Source: a virus. Taken from it: a stretch of 14,298 nt of DNA. Positions 1,622-14,298 of this stretch are shown piece by piece. A model generated the notes under the pieces. It was given only the letters and a program-made list of their open reading frames with translations. It did no database searches and was not told the origin of the DNA. Location: UHGV virus genome UHGV-0208508, one strand, 5' to 3'. Position 1 is the stretch's first letter. Every line of letters starts with the position of its first letter. Position numbers and translations under genes: made by a program.

Positions 1622-1744
1622 ACTGGGCGTCTAATGAGGGATTCTGGCAGGTGATAAGGGAGATCACCGGCGAGGAGTATGCCAGCCCGGCGCAGTACCG
1701 GCAGCGCTACCTTCTCGCCGCGCTCAAAGAAAGAGGTTTCTTCA

Positions 1745-3562
1745 ATGGTAGCTAAGTCGATCGTCGACATTGACGTAAATGACGACAAGTTTGTCGCGTT
1801 TATGGAAAGGTTTCGCGAGTACCAGAGCGCGCTGGATGATTTACCGGAAGCCTGGCGAGTGGCTGCCGTTGGCATTGGCGAAAGCAGCAAGCAGACCGAA
1901 AAGGCCAAAGGTGAGGCGAAGGAGTTAGGCGCGGAGTTTAACGCCGTGGCCGAGGCCATTCTGACCATCAACAGCGGTATCGATCGGCTCAATACCAACC
2001 TGGAAGACTCGAAGAAAAAGCAGGGCGAATTCAACAAAAGCACCCGATCTGCGAAGGGCTTCCTCAGCGATGCGACGAAAGACGCTAAATCGCTGGCAGG
2101 TCACATCAAGGAAGCGACGGCCAGCCTTCTGTCCTGGGGTGGTATTGTCGGGATATTTACCGGCGTCCTTGGCATTGGCGGCCTGTTTGGCATCAACCGC
2201 CTGGCTGCCACCACCGGTGCCCAGCGGTTTACTTCTCTCGGGCTCGGGACGAGCATCGGCGCGCTGGATTCCACCGCCATAAACTACCAGAAAGCGCTGG
2301 GTAATCCGGCGGGGACGCTGGGCGCTATCCGCGATTCCCAGATGGACCTGTCGAAGCGCTGGACGTTTCAGGCTATGGGGATTAACAATCCCGACCAGGA
2401 CCCGGCCAAACTGCTCCCGCAGATGATCCGTAATGCGCGCGATATTTTCGTGCAGAACGGCAGCACGCTGCAGGGCGCACAGGCGCACGGCCTGACAAAC
2501 TTCTTTACGCTGGACGACCTGAACCGCTTCAAAAACATGAGCGATGAGGAGATCACCGCCATGGAGAAGCGCGCGCAGCAGGATGCGCGTATGTTGCAAA
2601 TTACCGACCAGCAGGCGCGTCAGTGGCAGGATTTTAACGTCCAGCTCGATTACAGCAGCCAGAGCATCAGAAACACGTTTGTGCGCGGCCTGGGTCCTCT
2701 CACACCTCAACTGAGAAAACTGTCTGATGCGCTGTCAGGCGCGATCGATACCGTCCTGAAATCCCCCGAACTCGGCAAGTGGATTGATGCGCTTGCCGGC
2801 GGCATTGAGCGATTCGGTAATTACCTCGCTTCTCCTGAATTTTCCACAGATGTAAGCAACTTTATGGACAAAGTAGAGAAAATGGGAAATCTAATTGGCA
2901 AGGTTATTGATTGGGTAACAGGGAAAGCGAGTATCTCTACTGCGGATATATCATCCGGGTCAACGATGTTGAGCCCAAGCACCATCATCGATCCGAAAAC
3001 GGGAAAATCCTATACTCCTGGAAGCAATGATGACCCGCATGTATGGGGCTGGCTCAAGGGTGTTAGGCGCTTCTTTGAAGATGGAACCGTTAAAGCTGTT
3101 GATCCCACACCTGCAAATACTTCCGACAGAAACAGGACTATTGCAGATCGATTTAATAATCCGGGAAATCTGCGGTGGGCTGAAGGATACAGCAGCGAGA
3201 ATACGAGAAGCGGTAAATTTGCCGTCTTCCCAACGCTGGATGAAGGCGTACTGGCGGCGACAAAGCAACTTCAAATGTATGGCGCTAAAGGAATAAATAC
3301 GGTAGGAGATATTGCAAGAAAATGGGCTCCTCCTAAGGAAAATAATACCGCTGAGTATATTCGGCATGTGGTTAAAACTACTGGATTTAATGAGAATCAG
3401 AAACTGAATCTCAATGATCCTCAGGTTATCGCGAAACTCATTTCTGCTATATCTCAAAAAGAAGGGGCTGGTAGCAGAGTTTCTGAGAGCACAGTCATTC
3501 AGATCTATAACAATACCGGCGGGAATGCAGTGGTAACTTCAGCGCAATTGGGGGCGAGGTAA
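1745..3562 (+). CDS. Tail tape measure protein (about 605 aa from ATG 1745; an alternative in-frame ATG lies at 1679)
   Basis: Strong ribosome-binding site AAGAAAGAGG before ATG 1745. It is the longest ORF in the tail module, with an N-terminal helical/charged region, a Gly-rich hydrophobic segment (LSWGGIVGIFTGVLGIGGLFGI), and a Q/A/R-rich helical central part. It sits between the chaperone and baseplate genes. Confidence 0.8.
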   Translation: MVAKSIVDIDVNDDKFVAFMERFREYQSALDDLPEAWRVAAVGIGESSKQTEKAKGEAKELGAEFNAVAEAILTINSGIDRLNTNLEDSKKKQGEFNKSTRSAKGFLSDATKDAKSLAGHIKEATASLLSWGGIVGIFTGVLGIGGLFGINRLAATTGAQRFTSLGLGTSIGALDSTAINYQKALGNPAGTLGAIRDSQMDLSKRWTFQAMGINNPDQDPAKLLPQMIRNARDIFVQNGSTLQGAQAHGLTNFFTLDDLNRFKNMSDEEITAMEKRAQQDARMLQITDQQARQWQDFNVQLDYSSQSIRNTFVRGLGPLTPQLRKLSDALSGAIDTVLKSPELGKWIDALAGGIERFGNYLASPEFSTDVSNFMDKVEKMGNLIGKVIDWVTGKASISTADISSGSTMLSPSTIIDPKTGKSYTPGSNDDPHVWGWLKGVRRFFEDGTVKAVDPTPANTSDRNRTIADRFNNPGNLRWAEGYSSENTRSGKFAVFPTLDEGVLAATKQLQMYGAKGINTVGDIARKWAPPKENNTAEYIRHVVKTTGFNENQKLNLNDPQVIAKLISAISQKEGAGSRVSESTVIQIYNNTGGNAVVTSAQLGAR

Positions 3563-6294: not shown

Positions 6295-6623
6295 GAACCT
6301 ATGGCCGAAACTCTGAGGGGAAGTGGGTCCTGGTGGAAACCGACGAAAATGGGTTTAATGACTTGGTGTATTTAACCACCCTGATCCAGAATCTGAAACT
6401 GGCGCCGCAGGAGTCACCCTTTTATGCGAACAACGGAATCCCGGCCGCCGGGTCGGTGATCCAGCAAATCCTGCCGACGTATTACGTAAACCGTATTCAG
6501 AAACAGTTCAGCCAGTATTTTTCCTCGCTGCAGATTGCACTGATCAGCGACGACCCGCCTGTTTATAACATCTCGGCAATCACAAATGCAGGTTCAAAAA
6601 TAATTACACAGGTGGCCGTATGA
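6291..6623 (+). CDS. Putative baseplate wedge protein (W/gp25-like, 110 aa)
   Basis: GTG start overlapping the upstream TGA (GTGA). Size and position directly upstream of the J-like gene fit the V-W-J-I order of P2/Mu-type baseplates. Inference from synteny and size. Confidence 0.55.
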   Translation: MRTYGRNSEGKWVLVETDENGFNDLVYLTTLIQNLKLAPQESPFYANNGIPAAGSVIQQILPTYYVNRIQKQFSQYFSSLQIALISDDPPVYNISAITNAGSKIITQVAV

Positions 6624-8038
6624 GCGATTTACCAGTCAGCTATACGTCAGCAGGCCCGGTTCCTCTGACGCCGGAAGAGCTACGAGCACAGCTCGTTTCT
6701 CAGGCAATTGCGCTATCTCCGGGACTCACAACTGATTTGCCTGGATCTCTGATTGAGGACGTGGCCAGTACCGATGTCGGCGCGCTCATCGTTTGTGATC
6801 AAGCAAGGGTTGACCTGATTAACTCGGTGGGGCCACTAAAGGCTAACCTGGCCATGCTGGAGCTTCTCGCACAGCAGGCTGGTATTCCTGGGCAGAAAAC
6901 GGCTGGCACAACAACAGTCCCGGTTCAGTTTTCCGGCCCCGCGGGATTTGTTATCCCACAGGGGTTTATTGTTTCTGATGGGACCTATACCTATTCAGTC
7001 AGTGATGCGACGATTATCTCGTCGTCTGGAGTATCTGCCAGCGTATCATGCGAGGGAACGGAGACCGGGACCTGGGCGGTGCCGGTAAATACGGTTAACC
7101 AGATCATATCCAGTCTACCGTCTGACGTCACCATCACCTGCACCAACCCGATCGCCGGCACTCCGGGTGCTGACCCGGAAACGAACTATCAGTTTCGTGA
7201 TCGCGTATGGCAGGCGCAGATGGCCACCGTTCAGGGATATCCTGGATTTATCCGGCAATATCTCACCAGCCTTGATAACGTGCAGGCGCGCCTGGTTTCT
7301 GTCATTCAGGACGGGGATAAATGGATAGTCATGTGTGCCGGCGGTGATATTTACGATATTGCTGGCGCGCTCTATAAGTCTGCGGGGGATATCAGCCGGC
7401 TGAAAGGGTGTTCACTGAACGTAACGGGAATCACGAATGCAAATCCTGGTGTCGTCAGCACAGACCTGACTCATGGTTACACTGACGGCCAGGTTATCCG
7501 GATCACTGGCGTTACCGGGATGACGGGTATTAATGACGTCCCTCTGACCGTGACGGTACTGTCTCCTCACACGTTTTCCATCGGGATTGACACCACGTCA
7601 TCCGGGACCTGGGGAGGCGGCGGCGAGGTGACACCGAACGTCAGAAACAATACCGTGACGGTGAATGACTGGCCTGATAACTACGTGATCCCGTTCGTGA
7701 CGCCATTGCTGCAGCGGGTCACTGTGACGTATCAGTGGGGGACAGAAAGTGTTAACTACCTGACAGATGCCACGGTCGCCTCTCTGGTCTCGGCGCCTAC
7801 GATTCAGTATGTGAACGGCATATTCGCCGGGAAACCGCTGAACGTTAACAACCTGAAAGACGCATTCTTACAGGCGATTAACTCGACAATCGACATGGGG
7901 CTGATCAGCACTTTAAACGTCGTGGTCACCATCAATGGTGTGATAACACCACCGGATGCCGGGACGAATATCATCAGCGGCGATAAGTTCAGTTATTTTT
8001 ATATCGCGTCGGATGGCGTGATCGTAACAGGGGCGTAG
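6620..8038 (+). CDS. Baseplate J-like protein (472 aa)
   Basis: ATGA overlap with the upstream gene and an AGGTGG ribosome-binding site. A large protein between the W-like and I-like genes, which is the conserved position of baseplate J / gp6-type wedge proteins. Confidence 0.7.
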   Translation: MSDLPVSYTSAGPVPLTPEELRAQLVSQAIALSPGLTTDLPGSLIEDVASTDVGALIVCDQARVDLINSVGPLKANLAMLELLAQQAGIPGQKTAGTTTVPVQFSGPAGFVIPQGFIVSDGTYTYSVSDATIISSSGVSASVSCEGTETGTWAVPVNTVNQIISSLPSDVTITCTNPIAGTPGADPETNYQFRDRVWQAQMATVQGYPGFIRQYLTSLDNVQARLVSVIQDGDKWIVMCAGGDIYDIAGALYKSAGDISRLKGCSLNVTGITNANPGVVSTDLTHGYTDGQVIRITGVTGMTGINDVPLTVTVLSPHTFSIGIDTTSSGTWGGGGEVTPNVRNNTVTVNDWPDNYVIPFVTPLLQRVTVTYQWGTESVNYLTDATVASLVSAPTIQYVNGIFAGKPLNVNNLKDAFLQAINSTIDMGLISTLNVVVTINGVITPPDAGTNIISGDKFSYFYIASDGVIVTGA

Positions 8039-8039
8039 C

Positions 8040-8744
8040 ATGCTGGACGATATCATCCGGTCGTATATGTATACGCAATACAACGACGATGAAAATCTGC
8101 GGGCGTTTTTTACTGCGTATAACTCGATGGCGCAGGGCATTTATGACTGGATGGTTAATGCCAACCTGCCGATTTTCATCGGTGACTACAACACCGGAGA
8201 TCAGCTCCGGTGGATTGCCCATGGCATCTATGGCGTTTTGCCGCCGGTGATTTCCAGCAGCGATCAGCAGGAGATAGGCCCATATAACACCTTCGAATTT
8301 AACCAACTGGCATTCAATGAATACCGGGTGATTGACCAGTCGAACCAGGTTGTTGTCTCCGATGACCTTTTTAAGCGGATCATGACCTGGAATTTTTATA
8401 AAGGTGACGGCTTCTATTTCTCTATCCCATGGATAAAACGGCGTATTCTGCGGTTCCTGTTGGGAGTGAATGGCACCGATATCCTCAATGACCAGCGGTG
8501 GAGTATATCGATCCAGTTTGTGGATGGCGGGATCGTGATATCCATCTATAAGGGGCGCCGCAGGTTCACGCGGAGCGCTATCTACAACGCATCGGCCTAT
8601 AACTCCAGGAAGTACAACCAGAAGGACACGGCCTTTGTGATCACCGAGGATTTCGAGTTCGCTATTTTCTTCAAGCAGGCCATGGATAGCGGCCTGCTTC
8701 ACATGCCGTTTTACCAGTCAGTCACGGTTGAGATATTTGACTAG
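8040..8744 (+). CDS. Baseplate/tail protein I-like (234 aa)
   Basis: Starts 2 nt after the J-like stop with an AGGGGCG ribosome-binding site. Position between J-like and the tail-fiber genes matches P2 gpI / Mu gp48-type proteins. Confidence 0.6.
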   Translation: MLDDIIRSYMYTQYNDDENLRAFFTAYNSMAQGIYDWMVNANLPIFIGDYNTGDQLRWIAHGIYGVLPPVISSSDQQEIGPYNTFEFNQLAFNEYRVIDQSNQVVVSDDLFKRIMTWNFYKGDGFYFSIPWIKRRILRFLLGVNGTDILNDQRWSISIQFVDGGIVISIYKGRRRFTRSAIYNASAYNSRKYNQKDTAFVITEDFEFAIFFKQAMDSGLLHMPFYQSVTVEIFD

Positions 8745-8996
8745 GTTTTTATCTCGATTATCTATTGTTATATACAAATGAGATTTAACGCACTGACAAA
8801 TTATATGCAGCACAACTATTGATAAAAACAAAATGGATGACATTTTTATCATATCTATTGGCGGCATTCCTTGCTGAAAAAGAAATCCAAATAAAATAGT
8901 AAGCAAGGCGCAAGAAAGGAGTATTAATAAAGTAGATAGCGTTCCTAAAAGTATTTTTAAAATAGCAATAGAAGCATTATTCATAATATTCACCAT
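8718..8996 (-). CDS. Hypothetical small hydrophobic (two predicted transmembrane segments) protein encoded antisense in an AT-rich island; may be an artefact of AT-rich composition
   Basis: 92-codon minus-strand ORF, strongly hydrophobic (ASIAILKILLGTLSTLLILLSCALLTILFGFLF and MSSILFLSIVVLHIICQCV). No convincing Shine-Dalgarno sequence at the first ATG (a weak GGTG precedes the second ATG). AT-rich DNA readily yields Ile/Leu/Phe-rich ORFs by chance. Confidence 0.25.
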   Translation of the reverse strand: MVNIMNNASIAILKILLGTLSTLLILLSCALLTILFGFLFQQGMPPIDMIKMSSILFLSIVVLHIICQCVKSHLYITIDNRDKNLVKYLNRD

Positions 8997-9002
8997 TTAA
9001 AA

Positions 9003-9026
9003 GGCCGCGCTTGCGGTTTTTTTATT
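9003..9026 (+). terminator. Putative rho-independent terminator-like hairpin with T-tract (CCGC-GCTT-GCGG followed by TTTTTTT), flanked upstream by an A-run so possibly bidirectional
   Basis: Short GC stem (4-5 bp) with a tetraloop, directly followed by 7 T residues on the plus strand. It lies about 20 nt upstream of the first fiber gene's ribosome-binding site. Confidence 0.4.
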
Positions 9027-9045
9027 GCCTAATCCCGGAGGATAC

Positions 9046-11790
9046 ATGGCACTAACCCTTTTGGCTACAAACAACGCAGAAAGCACGCTGGCTTCTGCTA
9101 TCAGCGCAACCGACACGTCGCTGATCGTTAGCGCTGGAACTGGTGCCGAGTTCCCTGATGCTGTGGCAGGCGAGAGCTACTTTAAACTCACGCTCACCGA
9201 TGCCGCCACCGGCTCACAGGTTGAGATCGTGAACGTGACAGCTAAGGCTGGGGACATCTTCACGATTGAACGTGCGCAAGAAGGAACGCTGGCGCGTTCG
9301 TGGGCGGCCAACGACATGGTTGCCAACATGATGACGGCGGATACGCTGAACATTATCGCTCAATATGCCCAGCAGGCAGCTGCATCAGCAGCACAGGCTG
9401 CTGAGTATGCAGATAACGCTTCTGACTACGCACAGAATAAGTTCACGTTCTTTAAGACCGCCAGCGATCCTGATGGCACTATTGCCGGGCTGGCCGCAAC
9501 GACTGAAGGGCAGTCATTCTGGGTAGCCCAAGGTCCAGATGCGCTTTCTGCTGCATGGCAGTATCAGAATGTTGCGGGTGTAGCCGTGTTACAGGCTAAG
9601 CAGCCAGGAACAGCGGCTATAACCGGGACAATCCGCGAATTTCCCACGCTGGAGGCGGCACAGGCCGACGCCGATGCTGGCAATATTCCTACAGGTTCAA
9701 ATGCGTATTATCGAAGCGCTGACGACACAACTCTTGCGATTGAGGTAATCAACAACGCCGGTACGTTGACAGCAACCGGAAGAAAAATTCCAGCGTATTC
9801 CGCTTTGCGCAGAGGCAACATTTTATTCGACGCATTTAATGAATATTCAGCTGTTGATCCTAAGTTTGGTGCCTGGGACTGGTATCGCGGAGCTACTGTT
9901 ACATTTAGTACTACTGATGCCAACATTCCGTTACCGACTCCAGTGGCACAGTATTCCGGCGTATGGTCTGCAGATAAATATTATGACCTTGCCCGCCTGC
10001 CTGTAAGGGTAGGCGATCAATTAACCTTTTCTGTGCTGGCATGGTTTCAGGATGCCGGTGCTAAGTTCCATATATTCTGGATGTCCGCGAGCGGTACGAT
10101 AATATCCTCAAAATCCGTAACTGGACTGGCTTCAGGAATTAATGTTCCAGTTTTAACAGATATTGTTCCTGCTGGGGCGTCGTATGTACGAATTCGCGTA
10201 GAAAACACGACAACAGGATCGTTCAAGGTGGGAGCCTATGCGTCCGCTGTTGGTTCTATTCAGCCTGAATTTATTCGTGCCGCTCCTGACAAGACCTATA
10301 TGTCAGCGATTGTCTCTTCAGGCATCGCTGGCCTAACCTCGCGCGTGGATGCGTTGCAGGGGGCCATTTCTGTTGGGTATCCGTATGCAGCGACCTGGCA
10401 GGTTGGTAAATTTGTAAACCCAAATACCGGGGAAATAACAGATAATGCTGCGCTGAACTGTACCATAATTCCTCATAGTGACGGGGACGGTTGGCTGGTT
10501 ACTGCTCTCGTTACTGGATCGGCCACAGCTCTGGCTGTGTATATGAATGCGGCTGGCACAGTGCTGGGAGTGGAGGGGCGCGGAACAACAACGCCGCAGC
10601 AGTATACGAATTACCGCCTTAACGTTCCGTCGGGAACCACGCAGATCGGCATAACCGGTCGTAATTCTGCTCCAATGTCTGTTAAGAAATTGGCCGTTGT
10701 TGAAACTGCTACTGTACTGGCTAGCATCGATTCTCTCGATTCACGTGTACAGAAAATAGAAGATTCGCTGGTTTACGATTTCGTTCAGCAGGATGTCCCT
10801 ATTACGTCTGGAGCATATATAAACCGATCTACCGGTGCCGTCGTAACAAACTCTGCATTTGATTGTTCGATATTTGACTATACAACAGGAGATCGCTGGA
10901 AAGTTACGGCAAGGGTGAATGGAACGAGCGTATCACTCGCTGTATATTTTAATTCAGTGGGCACTGTCATTGGGACGGAAGGCGATGGTACATCAGCATC
11001 TGTGGATTACATTGATTATGAGCTGACGCCACCAACCGGCACTGCCAGGATAGGCATCACAACACGGGTTGCACTTCCTATAGTTGCTAAAAAATATGTC
11101 ATTGTTCCCAGCGGAAGTACAGTAAGTCCGTGGTCGGGAAAAATTATTGATGTAATGGGAGACAGCAACGTAGCCTATAACAAATGGCAACCGCTGGTTG
11201 CTAGTGAACTTGGTTGTTCTTTCCTGAACCATGGTGTTGGTGGTTCAAAGATCGCCAAACCCGATAGTTCACCGACACAAATCAGCATGTGTGACGACGC
11301 CAGGATTAATGCCCTCGATACGACGGCCACTGCCTGGATTTGTGGCCCGTGGGGGACAAATGACTGGGCGCAAAATATACCCATTGGAACTATTAGTGAC
11401 ACTGTGAATACCACGGTCTATGGTGCGCTAGTCATAATTGCACAAAAGCTTAGGGCGAGAGCACCAACCAAGCCTATTTTTTGGGTTACTCCATTCAACG
11501 GAGATTATGAAACTGGGAGGACTAGTTCATGGGTTGATGGGGAAACTAACCAATATGGCAGGGTGTCTGATTATTCTGCTGCAATTCGAGCTGTAGCTCT
11601 GCGATATGGCTTCCCATTGATTGATTTAAATGCAGATTGTGGGTGGACAAAATTTAATAGTAGTTATTTTTTGCTAACGGAAGGTGATACTAACCCTTCT
11701 CATATTCATTTAAATGATAGTGCTGGTCCAGCCAGAATTTCGGAGTTGGTAATAGATCGTTTAACGGCCCTTGCGAATTTGGCCAACTAG
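9046..11790 (+). CDS. Tail fiber / tailspike protein with C-terminal SGNH/GDSL-family hydrolase (esterase-like) domain (about 914 aa from ATG 9046)
   Basis: GGAGGA ribosome-binding site before ATG 9046. N-terminal about 105 aa is homologous to the N-terminus of the downstream fiber. An Ala/Gln-rich probable coiled-coil segment follows, then beta-rich repeats. The C-terminus carries GDS (VMGDSNV), a conserved Gly block (NHGVGGSK), GxND (WGTNDW) and a His block (NPSHIHLND). Confidence 0.85.
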   Translation: MALTLLATNNAESTLASAISATDTSLIVSAGTGAEFPDAVAGESYFKLTLTDAATGSQVEIVNVTAKAGDIFTIERAQEGTLARSWAANDMVANMMTADTLNIIAQYAQQAAASAAQAAEYADNASDYAQNKFTFFKTASDPDGTIAGLAATTEGQSFWVAQGPDALSAAWQYQNVAGVAVLQAKQPGTAAITGTIREFPTLEAAQADADAGNIPTGSNAYYRSADDTTLAIEVINNAGTLTATGRKIPAYSALRRGNILFDAFNEYSAVDPKFGAWDWYRGATVTFSTTDANIPLPTPVAQYSGVWSADKYYDLARLPVRVGDQLTFSVLAWFQDAGAKFHIFWMSASGTIISSKSVTGLASGINVPVLTDIVPAGASYVRIRVENTTTGSFKVGAYASAVGSIQPEFIRAAPDKTYMSAIVSSGIAGLTSRVDALQGAISVGYPYAATWQVGKFVNPNTGEITDNAALNCTIIPHSDGDGWLVTALVTGSATALAVYMNAAGTVLGVEGRGTTTPQQYTNYRLNVPSGTTQIGITGRNSAPMSVKKLAVVETATVLASIDSLDSRVQKIEDSLVYDFVQQDVPITSGAYINRSTGAVVTNSAFDCSIFDYTTGDRWKVTARVNGTSVSLAVYFNSVGTVIGTEGDGTSASVDYIDYELTPPTGTARIGITTRVALPIVAKKYVIVPSGSTVSPWSGKIIDVMGDSNVAYNKWQPLVASELGCSFLNHGVGGSKIAKPDSSPTQISMCDDARINALDTTATAWICGPWGTNDWAQNIPIGTISDTVNTTVYGALVIIAQKLRARAPTKPIFWVTPFNGDYETGRTSSWVDGETNQYGRVSDYSAAIRAVALRYGFPLIDLNADCGWTKFNSSYFLLTEGDTNPSHIHLNDSAGPARISELVIDRLTALANLAN
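10405..11106 (+). repeat. Two tandem homologous domain repeats of about 100 codons each inside the first fiber gene (about 10405-10701 and 10810-11106), diverged at nucleotide level
   Basis: Protein-level alignment by eye: GWLVTALVTGSATALAVYMNAAGTVLGVEGRGTTTPQQYTNYRLNVPSGTTQIGITGR versus RWKVTARVNGTSVSLAVYFNSVGTVIGTEGDGTSASVDYIDYELTPPTGTARIGITTR. Confidence 0.6.
11131..11787 (+). other. SGNH/GDSL hydrolase-like catalytic domain at the C-terminus of the first fiber (predicted catalytic Ser codon at 11164-11166)
   Basis: Ordered motif blocks typical of SGNH hydrolases: GDS near the domain start, a conserved Gly, GxND, and a C-terminal Asp/His block. Assigned from motif order only, with no profile search. 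Confidence 0.6.
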
Positions 11791-11865
11791 ATATTTATTG
11801 TCTTTGAAGTGAGGCTATTTCTGCGATGTTTATTCTGATAATTCCATTATTTAACAGGGGTATAT

Positions 11866-12897
11866 ATGGCGCTTAAGCTATTAGCCAATAATAACGCAAA
11901 GAGTGTTCTCGCTGCGGGTATTAGCGCGTCCGCTACCGTTATTACCGTGGGTACCGGAGCGGGGGCTTTATTCCCTTCCCCTGTATCTGGACAGAGTTAT
12001 TTCAAATTAACGATAACCGACGCGGCCACGAAAACAATTTCTGAAATTATGCACGTCACGTCTGTATCCGGTGACGTGATGACAGTAATTCGTGGTCAGG
12101 AAGGAACTACGGCACGCGTATGGTCAACAAATGACATTGTCGCGAATCTAATGACAGCCGGATCATTGTTATCGTTCCTGCAGATCAGTAATAACCTGTC
12201 AGAAATTAAAGATGCCGGTGATGATGCGGTAAATGAAGCCCGTTATAACCTCGGAATATCTGATTCCTCTGGTTTTGTCGGGCGTTCACTTGGCGCTCCA
12301 AAAGTTTTCTATGCAAACGGAACCTATACGCGATCTCCTCTGGCCCGTTATGCAAAAGTAACGTTGACCGGTGCCGGTGGCGGCGGTGGCGGCTGCCAGG
12401 CATCTAATAACACCGAAACCTTTTCCGGTGCCGGCGGCGGCGCGGGTGCGACCATTATCGTATGGGTTGACCTGTCTGCTGCCAGTTCTTACGCGATTAC
12501 TGTCGGCAAGGGTGGTAAGGGCGGAGTTGGCGCAGTAAGTGGTGCGGATGGTGGTGCTACCTCGTTTGCCAGCCTGTTCTCAGCTCCTGGCGGGAAAGGC
12601 GGCGTGAAGTCAGGCGTGTCCAATACCGCCGGCGGCGCCGGAGGTACGGCGGCGACCGGAGATATCAGGATCAACGGTGGTACCGGCTCAGATGGACAGA
12701 CAGGCTCAAGCCTTCTGACGGGAAACGGCGGGGCGTCGTATTTTGGCGGCGGTGGCCGGGCGGGTTCTCAGGCCGGTATTGCTGGCGCAGCTCCCGGATC
12801 CGGTGGTGGTGGCGCGTATGACCTTGGGTTTACCGGTACGGCATTTACCGGTGGTGATGGTGCTACTGGCATGGCGATCGTGGAAGAATTCGCGTAA
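11866..12897 (+). CDS. Second tail fiber / receptor-binding protein with glycine-rich C-terminal domain (343 aa)
   Basis: AGGGG ribosome-binding site before ATG 11866. N-terminal about 105 aa aligns with the first fiber N-terminus (MALxLLAxNNAxSxLAxxISAxxT...SYFKLTxTDAAT...QEGTxAR.W..ND.VAN.MTA). The C-terminal about 180 aa are dominated by GG/GGG/GGGG motifs separated by short variable segments. Confidence 0.8.
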   Translation: MALKLLANNNAKSVLAAGISASATVITVGTGAGALFPSPVSGQSYFKLTITDAATKTISEIMHVTSVSGDVMTVIRGQEGTTARVWSTNDIVANLMTAGSLLSFLQISNNLSEIKDAGDDAVNEARYNLGISDSSGFVGRSLGAPKVFYANGTYTRSPLARYAKVTLTGAGGGGGGCQASNNTETFSGAGGGAGATIIVWVDLSAASSYAITVGKGGKGGVGAVSGADGGATSFASLFSAPGGKGGVKSGVSNTAGGAGGTAATGDIRINGGTGSDGQTGSSLLTGNGGASYFGGGGRAGSQAGIAGAAPGSGGGGAYDLGFTGTAFTGGDGATGMAIVEEFA

Positions 12898-12901
12898 TGG
12901 C

Positions 12902-14062
12902 TTACACTCCTGCACGACCATCGATGTAATCAGCCCACCACTGCATCATTTCTCTGCGCTTATCTAGATACTGAGCATGGTTGTAAATACCGCGCACAGA
13001 TCCGCCGTTGGCATGTGCCAGCTGCACTTCAATAGCGTCAGCAGGCCATTCGTGCTCGTTCATAATCGTGCTGAATTCATGCCTGAATCCGTGACCGCTT
13101 TCCAGACCCTCATAGCCGATTTGTTTGATCACAAGCAGTACCGCATTCTCGCAGATTGGCTTCTTCTTATCGTTGCGCCCGGCAAAAACAAACTCTGAGA
13201 CTGGTTTGGTGATTGAGCTTAGCGTAGTGAGAAGTTCAACCACCTGGTCTGACATAGGAACAACATGAATCTTGCGGCCCTTCATCACACTGGCGTCGAT
13301 AGTGATAATCCTGTTTTCAAAATCGACGTTCTTCCATAGCATGGAACGAAGCTCTTTTGTTCTGAGGGCTGTGTAGCGTAAAACTTTGGTCGCAATGAGC
13401 GATACGATACTTCCTGAAAATGTTGCCAGTGCTTTGTTGAATGCAGGGATCTGGTCTGCTGGGAGAAACGGGAAGTTCTTCTTGCGGTATCCCTTCATGG
13501 CGTCAGCAAGGTCAGGTGCCGGGTTATATTTAGCCCTTCCGGTGACAATAGCGTAACGGAAAACCTCGCCGCATCTTCTGCGTGCTTTGTTGGCTCGCTC
13601 CATTGCACCGCGATCTTCAAATCTGCGGATTACTTCCAGCAGTTGCATCGGCTCAATATCCTGAATTTCAAGGCCGCCGATGATAGGTAAAATGTCGTCA
13701 TCAAACATTTTTGCAAGTTCAGTTGCATACCCTACTGACCATACTTGCTTCTTGTGCTCGTACCATTCTTTGTAAATCGCACTAAAGGAATTGTTGTTAG
13801 ACGAAGCCTTTTTCGCTTTTACCGGATCGATGCCAACCGAGATGTCTTTCCTCGCGGTCCATGCTTTATCTCTTGCCTCCTGCAAAGTCATAAGCGGATA
13901 TTTTCCGACGGTCAGGATTTTCTCCTTACCGTCAATCTTGTAGCGAAGCTGCCATACCTTTTTCCCTGACACAGGGACATAAAGGTACAGGCCATTACCA
14001 TCGAGTAGGCGGTATGGTTTTTCTTTCGGCTTTGCTGCTTCAATCTGCTTAACGGTGAGCAT
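12902..14062 (-). CDS. Phage integrase, tyrosine recombinase of the P4/IntS-like family (386 aa from the ATG at 14060-14062; an in-frame GTG at 14096-14098 would add 12 codons)
   Basis: 398-codon minus-strand ORF with C-terminal catalytic-domain signatures (HGFRHEF for His-x-x-Arg, and RGIYNHAQY with the presumptive catalytic Tyr) and an N-terminal arm-type DNA-binding region. It lies about 125-160 bp from a co-oriented tRNA gene, the canonical integrase-tRNA arrangement. Confidence 0.9.
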   Translation of the reverse strand: MLTVKQIEAAKPKEKPYRLLDGNGLYLYVPVSGKKVWQLRYKIDGKEKILTVGKYPLMTLQEARDKAWTARKDISVGIDPVKAKKASSNNNSFSAIYKEWYEHKKQVWSVGYATELAKMFDDDILPIIGGLEIQDIEPMQLLEVIRRFEDRGAMERANKARRRCGEVFRYAIVTGRAKYNPAPDLADAMKGYRKKNFPFLPADQIPAFNKALATFSGSIVSLIATKVLRYTALRTKELRSMLWKNVDFENRIITIDASVMKGRKIHVVPMSDQVVELLTTLSSITKPVSEFVFAGRNDKKKPICENAVLLVIKQIGYEGLESGHGFRHEFSTIMNEHEWPADAIEVQLAHANGGSVRGIYNHAQYLDKRREMMQWWADYIDGRAGV

Positions 14063-14223: not shown

Positions 14224-14298
14224 TGGTGTCCCCTGCAGGAATCGAACCTGCAATTAGCCCTTAGGAGGGGCTCGTTATATCCATTTAACTAAGAGGAC
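14224..14298 (-). tRNA. argW: tRNA-Arg (anticodon CCU), 75 nt including 3' CCA; its 5' end coincides with the window edge
   Basis: The reverse complement reads GTCCTCTTAGTTAAATGGATATAACGAGCCCCTCCTAAGGGCTAATTGCAGGTTCGATTCCTGCAGGGGACACCA. It folds as a cloverleaf with a 7 bp acceptor stem (GTCCTCT/AGGGGAC), T-arm GCAGG-TTCGATT-CCTGC, and anticodon loop CUCCUAA (anticodon CCU). It matches my recollection of enterobacterial argW. Confidence 0.88.

Follow-up and report, generated by a model that had tools for sequence, protein, structure and literature searches.

The window, the whole 14,298-nucleotide stretch that we analysed, is the right-hand end of a temperate, contractile-tail prophage that has integrated at the tRNA gene argW in E. 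coli. ARAGORN located this tRNA-Arg (CCT) gene, which marks the integration site and the end of the prophage, at positions 14224–14298 on the minus strand; the flanking genes, yfdC-mlaA-yfdF-fadL, match E. coli chromosomes at 100% identity. An IntS-type prophage integrase is encoded at 12902–14062, also on the minus strand (PHROG integrase, Pfam Phage_integrase, 386 aa in public gene calls), and in sister prophages the integrase carries the RefSeq name 'prophage integrase IntS'. Its mechanical open reading frame runs on to 14098. The Klebsiella phage vB_Kpn_Chronis shares 93% identity with the prophage backbone over 74% of the window. Phage matches of this kind suggested Klebsiella as the host, but this was given up because the exact fibre protein described below and the flanks are those of E. 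coli.

The tail genes include a tape-measure-like protein (1679–3562) that bears a transglycosylase-like region, and the sheath, tube, hub and baseplate J genes are followed directly by the gene for tail fibre 1 (9046–11790, plus strand, 914 aa and the stop codon). The open reading frame of fibre 1 spans 9025–11790; the actual start is the ATG at 9046, with a GGAGG 5 nt upstream, and the same 914-aa product is called in public contigs. It is identical to WP_250206026.1, named 'SGNH/GDSL hydrolase family protein [Escherichia coli]' in RefSeq. The protein matches PHROG tail-fibre families (e.g., phrog_38670, E 4.8e-120), and its residues 8–119 match the solved 'putative tail fiber protein' PDB 8jov_1 (E 2.8e-10); the literature search returned nothing relevant on 8JOV. 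Homology and gene order thus both identify the product as a predicted virion tail fibre, in agreement with the first-pass annotation, which had called it the first of the tail fibres. A second fibre of 343 aa is encoded at 11866–12897 on the plus strand (PHROG tail-fibre families; Pfam PF21722, Gly_rich_2). It combines an N-terminal anchor of the fibre 1 type with a glycine-rich C-terminal domain, and residues 1–101 of fibre 1 are 58% identical to it. Neither of the two fibres nor the small ORF has a model in NCBIfam. When positions 8600–12000 were scanned for promoters and terminators, the numbers of sites were not above those of shuffled controls.

Fibre 1 is built from separable modules. 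Comparison with other alleles and with gp23 of Chronis delimits a conserved N-terminal anchor and proximal stem of 250 residues (9046–9795, plus strand). These residues are 87–88% identical in amino acids to the fibre 1 alleles L008 and L009, and there is no similarity to those alleles beyond them. The anchor and stem are also found in Chronis gp23, where nucleotide identity stops at nucleotide 743 of the gene. Sister prophages at argW have residues 1–250 in common and then carry either a SASA (sialate O-acetylesterase type) head or another GDSL_2 esterase head. These alignments show that one argW prophage lineage exchanges different SGNH-type heads on a constant 250-residue anchor.

The middle of the protein carries beta-sandwich modules, among them two tandem copies of a helix followed by a beta-sandwich (residues 430–695). 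The first repeat (residues 430–560; 10333–10725, plus strand) consists of a short helix and then a beta-sandwich domain. The second (residues 555–695; 10708–11130, plus strand) has a helix (model residues 2–20) followed by a nine-strand beta-sandwich and directly precedes the C-terminal domain. The two repeats are 37% identical (MAFFT alignment A2), and each of four homologues (P0001, P0016, P0017 and P0011) matches both, while blastp of fibre 1 against itself did not report an internal repeat. A word-index protein search with the repeats as query returned 8 matches.

The C-terminal end of the fibre (residues 696–914; 11131–11787, plus strand) is an SGNH/GDSL hydrolase domain by Pfam, profile, AlphaFold and Foldseek evidence. 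Its start at nucleotide 11131 corresponds to W696 of 'PWSGKIIDVMGDS', which is a sensible boundary. Pfam PF13472 (Lipase_GDSL_2) matches residues 706–891 with 38.5 bits, above the gathering cut-off of 32.9 bits, and the precomputed PF13472 match of the identical public protein agrees. A search with the single sequence found PDB 7bxd at E 7e-10, and a family profile built from 10 sequences matched 7bxd (E 1.5e-39) and 3dc7 (E 2.7e-35) as well as two virion proteins, 6v8i_AE (Tal of phage 80alpha, E 3.3e-22) and 8egr_K (E 1e-14). An exhaustive search of 1.84 billion representative proteins recovered 3311 relatives at E<=1e-3, as against the 13 matches of a word-index protein search with the head as query. 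Many viral multidomain proteins match the SGNH domain, and in a scan of one genome per species the sole match was a Sphingomonas relative at 47% identity. The terminal position of the domain is usual among its relatives: at most 15 residues follow it in 123 of the 135 whose alignment covers the domain end, with a median protein length of 633 aa.

The predicted structure agrees with these matches. The AlphaFold model of the head (pLDDT 83.9, pTM 0.84) has alternating strands and helices in the three-layer alpha/beta/alpha fold of SGNH proteins, built around a central parallel sheet, and the serine of the GDS motif (model residue 28) is placed at the turn that leads from strand 1 (model residues 21–26) to helix 1 (28–31), the position of the nucleophile. 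Foldseek against the PDB gave a probability of 1.00 for 7bxd, 3dc7, 3bzw and 4q7q, with TM-scores of about 0.72–0.80 for 7bxd and 3dc7. All of the best 20 PDB matches are GDSL/SGNH-type lipases or esterases except 7br2, a gut-bacterial drug-metabolizing enzyme, and the matches include acetylxylan, sialate and peptidoglycan O-acetylesterases. The assignment to the SGNH type is therefore confirmed far beyond chance. The first-pass annotation had proposed an SGNH/GDSL esterase-like domain fused to the fibre C-terminus from motifs alone, and the family match above a curated threshold, the profile matches and the predicted core with its serine at the nucleophile turn all bear this out.

The motifs on which that proposal stood (GDS, a Gly block, GxND and a His block) are all present in canonical order inside the open reading frame. 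We counted how often their residues are kept in 139 relatives, the most distant of which are about 35% identical. Block I (G705-D706-S707, followed by Asn; 11158–11166, plus strand) contains the predicted nucleophile S707 (nucleotides 11164–11166) and is kept almost without exception (G in 137, D in 138 and S in 138 of the 139). Block II (G730-V-G-G733; 11233–11244, plus strand) provides a glycine as predicted oxyanion-hole donor; G730 is kept in 134/139 and G733 in 133/139, and both are invariant in alignment A1. The other predicted donor is N772 of Block III (G770-T-N772-D773; 11353–11364, plus strand), conserved in 138/139, next to D773, which is found in all 139. Block V is the SHIH motif (S885-H886-I887-H888; 11698–11709, plus strand), in which H888 (nucleotides 11707–11709) is the predicted general base. 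This residue is present in 138 of the 139 relatives, and its counterpart in the alignment with 7bxd is the His of 'DGLH'.

Block V departs from the textbook form. The conserved His of SHIH is the second one; His886 is replaced by Arg in the closest relatives. The position three residues before it (His-3) is occupied by Ser885, and only 30 of the 139 relatives have DxxH there. The spacing of SHIH had been flagged as unusual at the outset, and rightly so: His888 is the practically invariant base and the textbook Asp at His-3 is absent. The variant loop (E879-G-D881-T-N-P-S885-H886-I-H888; 11680–11709, plus strand) is the part of the model with the lowest confidence (mean pLDDT 67, model residues 201–210), and the distance from acid to His among the relatives ranges from 3 to 11 residues. 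Of the acidic residues, Asp881 (His-7) and Glu879 (His-9) come closest, and neither is stably conserved: Asp881 is replaced already at 70% identity, and Glu879 is gone at about 58% identity.

The loss of the Asp does not exclude membership of the SGNH superfamily, because it is documented in active SGNH enzymes; the CE2 enzymes, EcNanS and SsEst are esterases without the Block V Asp (PMC9487903). Since the canonical Asp is absent here, the enzyme probably uses a Ser-His dyad or a non-canonical acid, for which Glu879 would be the best candidate. The dyad esterases, among them CtCE2, E. coli NanS and the Streptomyces scabies esterase, resemble this head in that they lack the Block V Asp or do not use it, and they remain active; in the CE2 acetylxylan esterases the catalytic domain is likewise joined to a beta-sandwich module (PMC9487903). 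At the sequence level they are not specifically related to the head, and the dyad proposed for it is read from sequence only.

Together with the place of the domain on a fibre and the swapping of heads between sister prophages, this evidence leads us to put the probability at about three in four that residues 696–914 are an SGNH-type esterase on a modular receptor-binding fibre of the argW prophage, acting on an ester of a host surface glycan. By analogy with characterized fibres, the head most likely removes acyl groups from a sugar polymer of the host surface at attachment. Residues 1–250 would provide attachment to the baseplate and the conserved stem. Ser707 would attack an ester on the surface glycan, with His888 as the general base and with an oxyanion hole formed by the backbone NH of Ser707, Gly733 and the side chain of Asn772. 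The target would most probably be an O-acetyl group of the O-antigen, the capsule or another exopolysaccharide. Deacylation could then allow the fibre to bind and release, or to remodel, the polysaccharide layer, after which the virion would gain the cell surface and adsorption might be completed by fibre 2 or the baseplate.

The departure in Block V raises the question of whether the head is catalytic at all. It could be a pseudoenzyme, that is, a dead or very weak carbohydrate-binding module that recognises acylated glycans but leaves them intact, and the missing canonical Asp, the lack of an acid stably conserved in the nearest clade and the expanded, less confidently modelled loop are what such a module might show. 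However, Ser, Gly, Asn and His are intact and 96–99% conserved over the 139 relatives, the pattern expected of an enzyme, and the SGNH esterases with a Ser-His dyad are active (PMC9487903), so that we regard this possibility as unlikely. An enzyme of another specificity is a further option. Relatives are named 'lipase/acylhydrolase' or 'lysophospholipase L1' in Pfam and several databases, and PAF acetylhydrolases are among the fold matches, which would fit a lipase, phospholipase or LPS acyl esterase that attacks outer-membrane lipids for tail penetration. The domain, however, is distal on a long fibre, behind beta-sandwich modules and away from the central spike or hub; the sister alleles carry a SASA head at the same position; and the characterised SGNH domains of phage fibres target acetyl groups of polysaccharides (PMC13123978). 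A role against lipids is accordingly rather improbable.

A target deeper in the envelope has its own structural parallels. The profile match to the C-terminal domain of 80alpha Tal gp59 (6v8i_AE, above) and the presence of the peptidoglycan O-acetylesterase 4k3u among the fold matches could point to a peptidoglycan O-acetylesterase or cell-wall lysin, Ape-like or similar to the role proposed for Tal, that serves penetration. This is very improbable for a fibre of this kind, given that Gram-negative peptidoglycan lies under the outer membrane, beyond the reach of a distal fibre tip, and that the tape-measure-like protein already contains a transglycosylase-like region. E. coli is not known for O-acetylation of its peptidoglycan. 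Least plausible is an O-acyltransferase that modifies the receptor in the manner of the SGNH-like proteins PatB, OatA-C and AlgX. PatB (7tjb) does occur among the distant fold matches, and SGNH folds can catalyse transfer (PMC9487903), but an extracellular virion has no acyl donor, the nearest relatives in sequence and fold are of the hydrolase type, and the SGNH domains of phage fibres that have been tested are hydrolases.

The preferred reading, an esterase acting on a surface glycan, places fibre 1 in a class that has been described in enterobacterial prophages. Klebsiella prophages often encode SGNH tail fibres; p-nitrophenyl acetate is hydrolysed by two of these, 174_38-KL55 and 164_08-KL2 (Otwinowska et al., PLoS Biol 2026, PMC13123978). 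Like fibre 1, these are fibres of temperate phages in which a C-terminal SGNH head replaces the beta-helix depolymerase and in which heads are modular and exchangeable, and 174_38 also matches PF13472. The tested Klebsiella fibres differ in their unrelated N-termini and in their SGNH subtypes, which are 7C82-like (PF13472) and SASA, whereas the head described here belongs to a phage of E. coli, is 7BXD/3DC7-like and is without the DxxH Asp. An SGNH tail protein that resembles 3DC7/7BXD has been reported in the K. pneumoniae prophage region KPS9086-contig_11 (Kolupaeva et al., Viruses 2025, PMC12115436); the same solved hydrolases are the top matches of our head, a likeness that is one of description, as the report is bioinformatic.

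The functional model for fibre 1 is gp63.1 of phage G7C, a receptor-binding SGNH tailspike that must deacetylate the O-antigen for infection to proceed, according to a published summary (PMC13123978). It belongs to another SGNH subfamily and has another architecture, and G7C is a virulent podovirus, unlike the temperate phage considered here. The family profile gave no match with gp63.1 even at E<=10, and it was absent from the top 50 Foldseek matches. The functional analogy thus holds at the superfamily level only, because gp63.1 was not detected by these searches and the tested Klebsiella fibres are of other subfamilies. The closest solved structures, 7BXD (Ca_00815) and 3DC7 (lp_3323 of Lactobacillus plantarum), align with the head in Blocks I–III and in the Block V His but are stand-alone single-domain bacterial proteins with a canonical DxxH ('DGLH' and 'DTLH', respectively); the literature searched reports no function for either. 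The C-terminal domain of 80alpha Tal gp59 (6V8I) and the SGNH protein of 8EGR are, like the head, virion-associated SGNH domains that match the family profile, but Tal comes from a phage of Gram-positive bacteria, where it forms part of the central hub and not of a side fibre, and its activity is putative (PMC7048315).

More speculatively, the 7BXD/3DC7-like heads may constitute a distinct branch of virion esterases with a length-variable Block V, of which this clade would have given up the catalytic Asp altogether. The present allele could then be a Ser-His dyad enzyme specific for a surface ester of E. coli that is so far assigned to no phage enzyme, for example in colanic acid, in ECA or in a given O-antigen. 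We consider this proposal possible but doubtful.

We regard the head of fibre 1 as real, correctly interpreted and ordinary, because fibres of this class have already been described and in part tested (PMC13123978, PMC12115436) and RefSeq already lists the identical protein as an SGNH/GDSL hydrolase. Current understanding is unchanged by it: such fibres, their frequency in enterobacterial prophages and their activity as esterases are all on record in the literature. The locus adds an example from E. coli and a concrete predicted fibre esterase without the textbook DxxH. Esterase heads on fibres decide which variants of surface polysaccharide a phage can use, which matters for host-range prediction and the design of phage therapy, and they are also tools for probing the O-acetylation of O-antigens and capsules. 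The head allele is rare, being found in 2 of 5426 complete genomes at >=99% identity.

The first tail fibre gene lies in a reading frame that, with its upstream extension, spans 9025-11790 on the plus strand. Its ATG at 9046 has a GGAGG five bases before it, and the 914-aa product is called identically in public assemblies and RefSeq. The first-pass annotation had proposed an SGNH/GDSL esterase-like domain at the C-terminus (11131-11790, residues 696-914, here termed the head), and the four motifs that it listed are all found there, in the order that it gave. Read from the translation (plus strand), these are Block I (G705-D706-S707, nt 11158-11166), Block II (G730-V-G-G733, nt 11233-11244), Block III (G770-T-N772-D773, nt 11353-11364), and Block V (S885-H886-I887-H888, nt 11698-11709). 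The SGNH esterase-like head is confirmed, and its interpretation as a putative receptor-binding esterase is supported.

Residues 706-891 match Pfam Lipase_GDSL_2 (PF13472) with 38.5 bits (curated cut-off 32.9). The single sequence retrieves the solved GDSL-like protein 7bxd (7e-10) and 3dc7 (1e-8). A ten-sequence profile matches the same two structures at 1.5e-39 and 2.7e-35, respectively, as well as 3bzw, 4q7q, and two virion proteins, the Tal C-terminal domain of Staphylococcus phage 80alpha (6v8i_AE, 3.3e-22) and 8egr_K (1e-14). Searched exhaustively, 1.84 billion representative proteins yielded 3311 relatives at E<=1e-3, of which 598 reached E<=1e-10. The SGNH-family similarity exceeds chance, and the absence of an SGNH match is ruled out. 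The AlphaFold2 model of residues 680-914, built on the ten-sequence alignment (mean pLDDT 83.9, pTM 0.84), shows the alternating strands and helices of an SGNH fold, with the GDS motif predicted where the first strand (model residues 21-26) turns into the first helix (28-31). The first Foldseek matches in the PDB are 7bxd, 3dc7, 3bzw, and 4q7q, and later ones are nearly all SGNH esterases; the matches include acetylxylan esterases, sialate O-acetylesterases, PAF acetylhydrolases, and one peptidoglycan O-acetylesterase. Among viral models, many phage proteins of 400-1100 aa annotated as hydrolase, GDSL lipase or SGNH are matched. Given these profile and fold matches, neither the SGNH kinship nor the placement of the GDS serine is contradicted, and model and sequence indicate a genuine SGNH fold in which Ser, Gly, Asn, and His are all intact.

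In an alignment of the domain from 138 relatives and the query (n=139), D773 is invariant (139/139), S707, N772, and H888 are each kept in 138 sequences, and G733 is kept in 133. The first histidine of 'SHIH', H886, is replaced by Arg in the closest relatives ('...TEGDTNPSRIH'), and therefore H888, whose counterpart in 7bxd is the His of 'DGLH', is the predicted catalytic histidine. The first-pass annotation had cautioned that 'SHIH' does not have the textbook DxxH spacing. Ser885 occupies the position three residues before the histidine, where Asp is expected. This caveat is correct, as Asp is missing there and active SGNH enzymes that lack, or do not use, a Block V Asp are known, including many CE2 esterases and E. 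coli NanS (PMC9487903); in a Streptomyces scabies esterase a backbone carbonyl replaces it (PMC9487903). Across the family, only 30 of the 139 sequences have Asp at this position; D-G-x-x-x-H is the most frequent arrangement (56/139), and the acid lies 3 to 11 residues before the His. Within the query clade, Thr or Ser has replaced Asp881 in relatives still 64-70% identical, and Glu879 is lost at about 58% identity. This segment is also the least confident part of the model core (mean pLDDT 67, model residues 201-210). Block V most likely represents a Ser-His dyad or a non-canonical acid rather than an inactive domain, and this non-canonical block, variable in length, is the only mildly unusual feature of the finding.

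Upstream of the fibre are genes for a tail sheath fragment, a tape-measure-like protein, a hub, a baseplate J-like protein, and other baseplate proteins. Assignment as a tail fibre is supported by matches to PHROG tail-fibre families (e.g. phrog_38670, 4.8e-120). Similarity to the N-terminus of a solved 'putative tail fiber protein' (8jov) covers the first ~120 residues, and residues 1-101 share 58% identity with the beginning of the second fibre (11866-12897), which combines a similar N-terminal anchor with a C-terminal glycine-rich domain (Pfam Gly_rich_2). Two receptor-binding proteins with the same anchor type suggest two attachment positions or alternative occupancy of the baseplate. The first fibre also contains a tandem duplication, residues 430-560 and 555-695, with 37% identity between the copies, and the 'beta-sandwich plus SGNH' cassette is common to many relatives. 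In 123 of the 135 relatives aligned to the domain end, at most 15 residues follow the SGNH domain; the head is the distal part of a fibre anchored to the baseplate.

The head has been exchanged for other esterase heads in sister prophages, which share the backbone and integration site. Their first fibres are 87-88% identical over residues 1-250 and then diverge completely. One (L008, 9050-11668, 872 aa) carries a SASA (sialate O-acetylesterase type) domain, another (L009, 9046-11193, 715 aa) a different PF13472 head with a canonical 'DALH', and the last (L010, 9046-12435) a third head (PF13472/PF00657) with 'DGIH', likewise canonical. E. coli MS 85-1 shows the converse, with the gene 99.2% identical from nt 659 on and a different N-terminus. 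The recombination joint is therefore at about residue 215-250. The L010 fibre is split, one piece being a partial pseudogene and the other a 302-aa SGNH ORF of its own, and the sister alleles have 2-3 extra small ORFs between the two fibre genes that the window lacks. Several database homologues of the repeat/SGNH region (P0011, P0162, P0164, and P0165, from Klebsiella variicola and others) are short fragments with out-of-frame tails (e.g. '...KNMLLFPVVARSVRGLEKSSM'), suggesting frameshifted or decaying fibre copies in Klebsiella genomes, or assembly errors.

SGNH domains on phage receptor-binding proteins are well established, and the first-pass annotation noted their known deacetylation of O-antigen or capsule. 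For instance, G7C gp63.1 removes an O-acetyl group from the O-antigen, a step needed for infection (summarised in PMC13123978). In 8,105 Klebsiella prophages, SGNH is among the most frequent enzymatic domains of receptor-binding proteins, and two such fibres are active on p-nitrophenyl acetate (PMC13123978, 2026). A 2025 survey reports, in a prophage tail protein of K. pneumoniae, an SGNH domain similar to 3DC7 and 7BXD (PMC12115436), the same subtype as our head. G7C gp63.1 does not match the head family profile even at E<=10 and has no specific relation to the head, nor do the two tested Klebsiella fibres, which are 7C82-like and SASA. We therefore infer function by superfamily and architecture, not orthology. 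Ser707 and His888 would cleave an O-acyl ester, probably O-acetyl, carried by a polysaccharide of the E. coli surface; the beta-sandwich repeats ahead of the head may help to hold the polymer, and hydrolysis would let the virion pass through the polysaccharide layer ahead of irreversible binding. Reading the head as a pseudoenzyme, a lipid esterase, a peptidoglycan esterase or an acyltransferase is less consistent with the data, as each fits worse with the residue conservation, the position of the domain in the fibre, and the sister alleles. The head is already annotated and, as a receptor-binding esterase, would be an unremarkable case of a class described in the literature.

Klebsiella phage vB_Kpn_Chronis aligns to 74% of the window with 93% identity, but its similarity to the fibre is confined to the first ~250 residues. 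A 627-aa protein in the tape-measure position (1679-3562; public gene calls start later, giving 605 aa) has a transglycosylase/endolysin-like region (aa ~475-615; PHROG 873, 7182), and its Chronis counterpart is annotated 'putative lytic transglycosylase'. The baseplate J-like protein (6620-8038) matches Pfam Baseplate_J and PHROG baseplate wedge. Its RefSeq name, 'ubiquitin-activating E1 FCCH domain-containing protein', stems from a secondary PF16190 match and is misleading for a protein of the phage baseplate. Between the last baseplate gene and the first fibre lies an AT-rich island (GC 0.31 versus about 0.5 around it). It contains a minus-strand 92-aa ORF (8718-8996), very hydrophobic with two likely membrane helices, that resembles a moron and has no significant match in PHROG or NCBIfam; Chronis instead has a different, plus-strand gene in this slot (gp22, 231 aa). 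A GC hairpin followed by a T-run (about 9003-9027) directly precedes the fibre start.

Klebsiella, the host indicated by phage databases, was dropped, as the exact protein and the flanking chromosome are from E. coli. RefSeq lists the identical sequence as WP_250206026.1, 'SGNH/GDSL hydrolase family protein [Escherichia coli]', and contigs encoding it run on into yfdC-mlaA-yfdF-fadL, which match E. coli chromosomes with 100% identity. At the end of the window are an IntS-type integrase and tRNA-Arg(CCT), which together with the flanking genes identify the window as the right arm of a prophage integrated at argW in E. coli. At least 80% of the window is present in 16 of 5426 complete E. coli genomes. 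The head itself is rare, being present in two genomes at >=99% identity, and a variant about 74% identical occurs in 12 more. The same tail module and fibre, at 99% identity, are found in E. coli ETEC4091 (NZ_CP122617.1, 3129324-3140068), where the module adjoins ybhB-bioA and no integrase follows the second fibre, so the module is also carried by a prophage at another chromosomal site, the lambda att region, or by a rearranged prophage.
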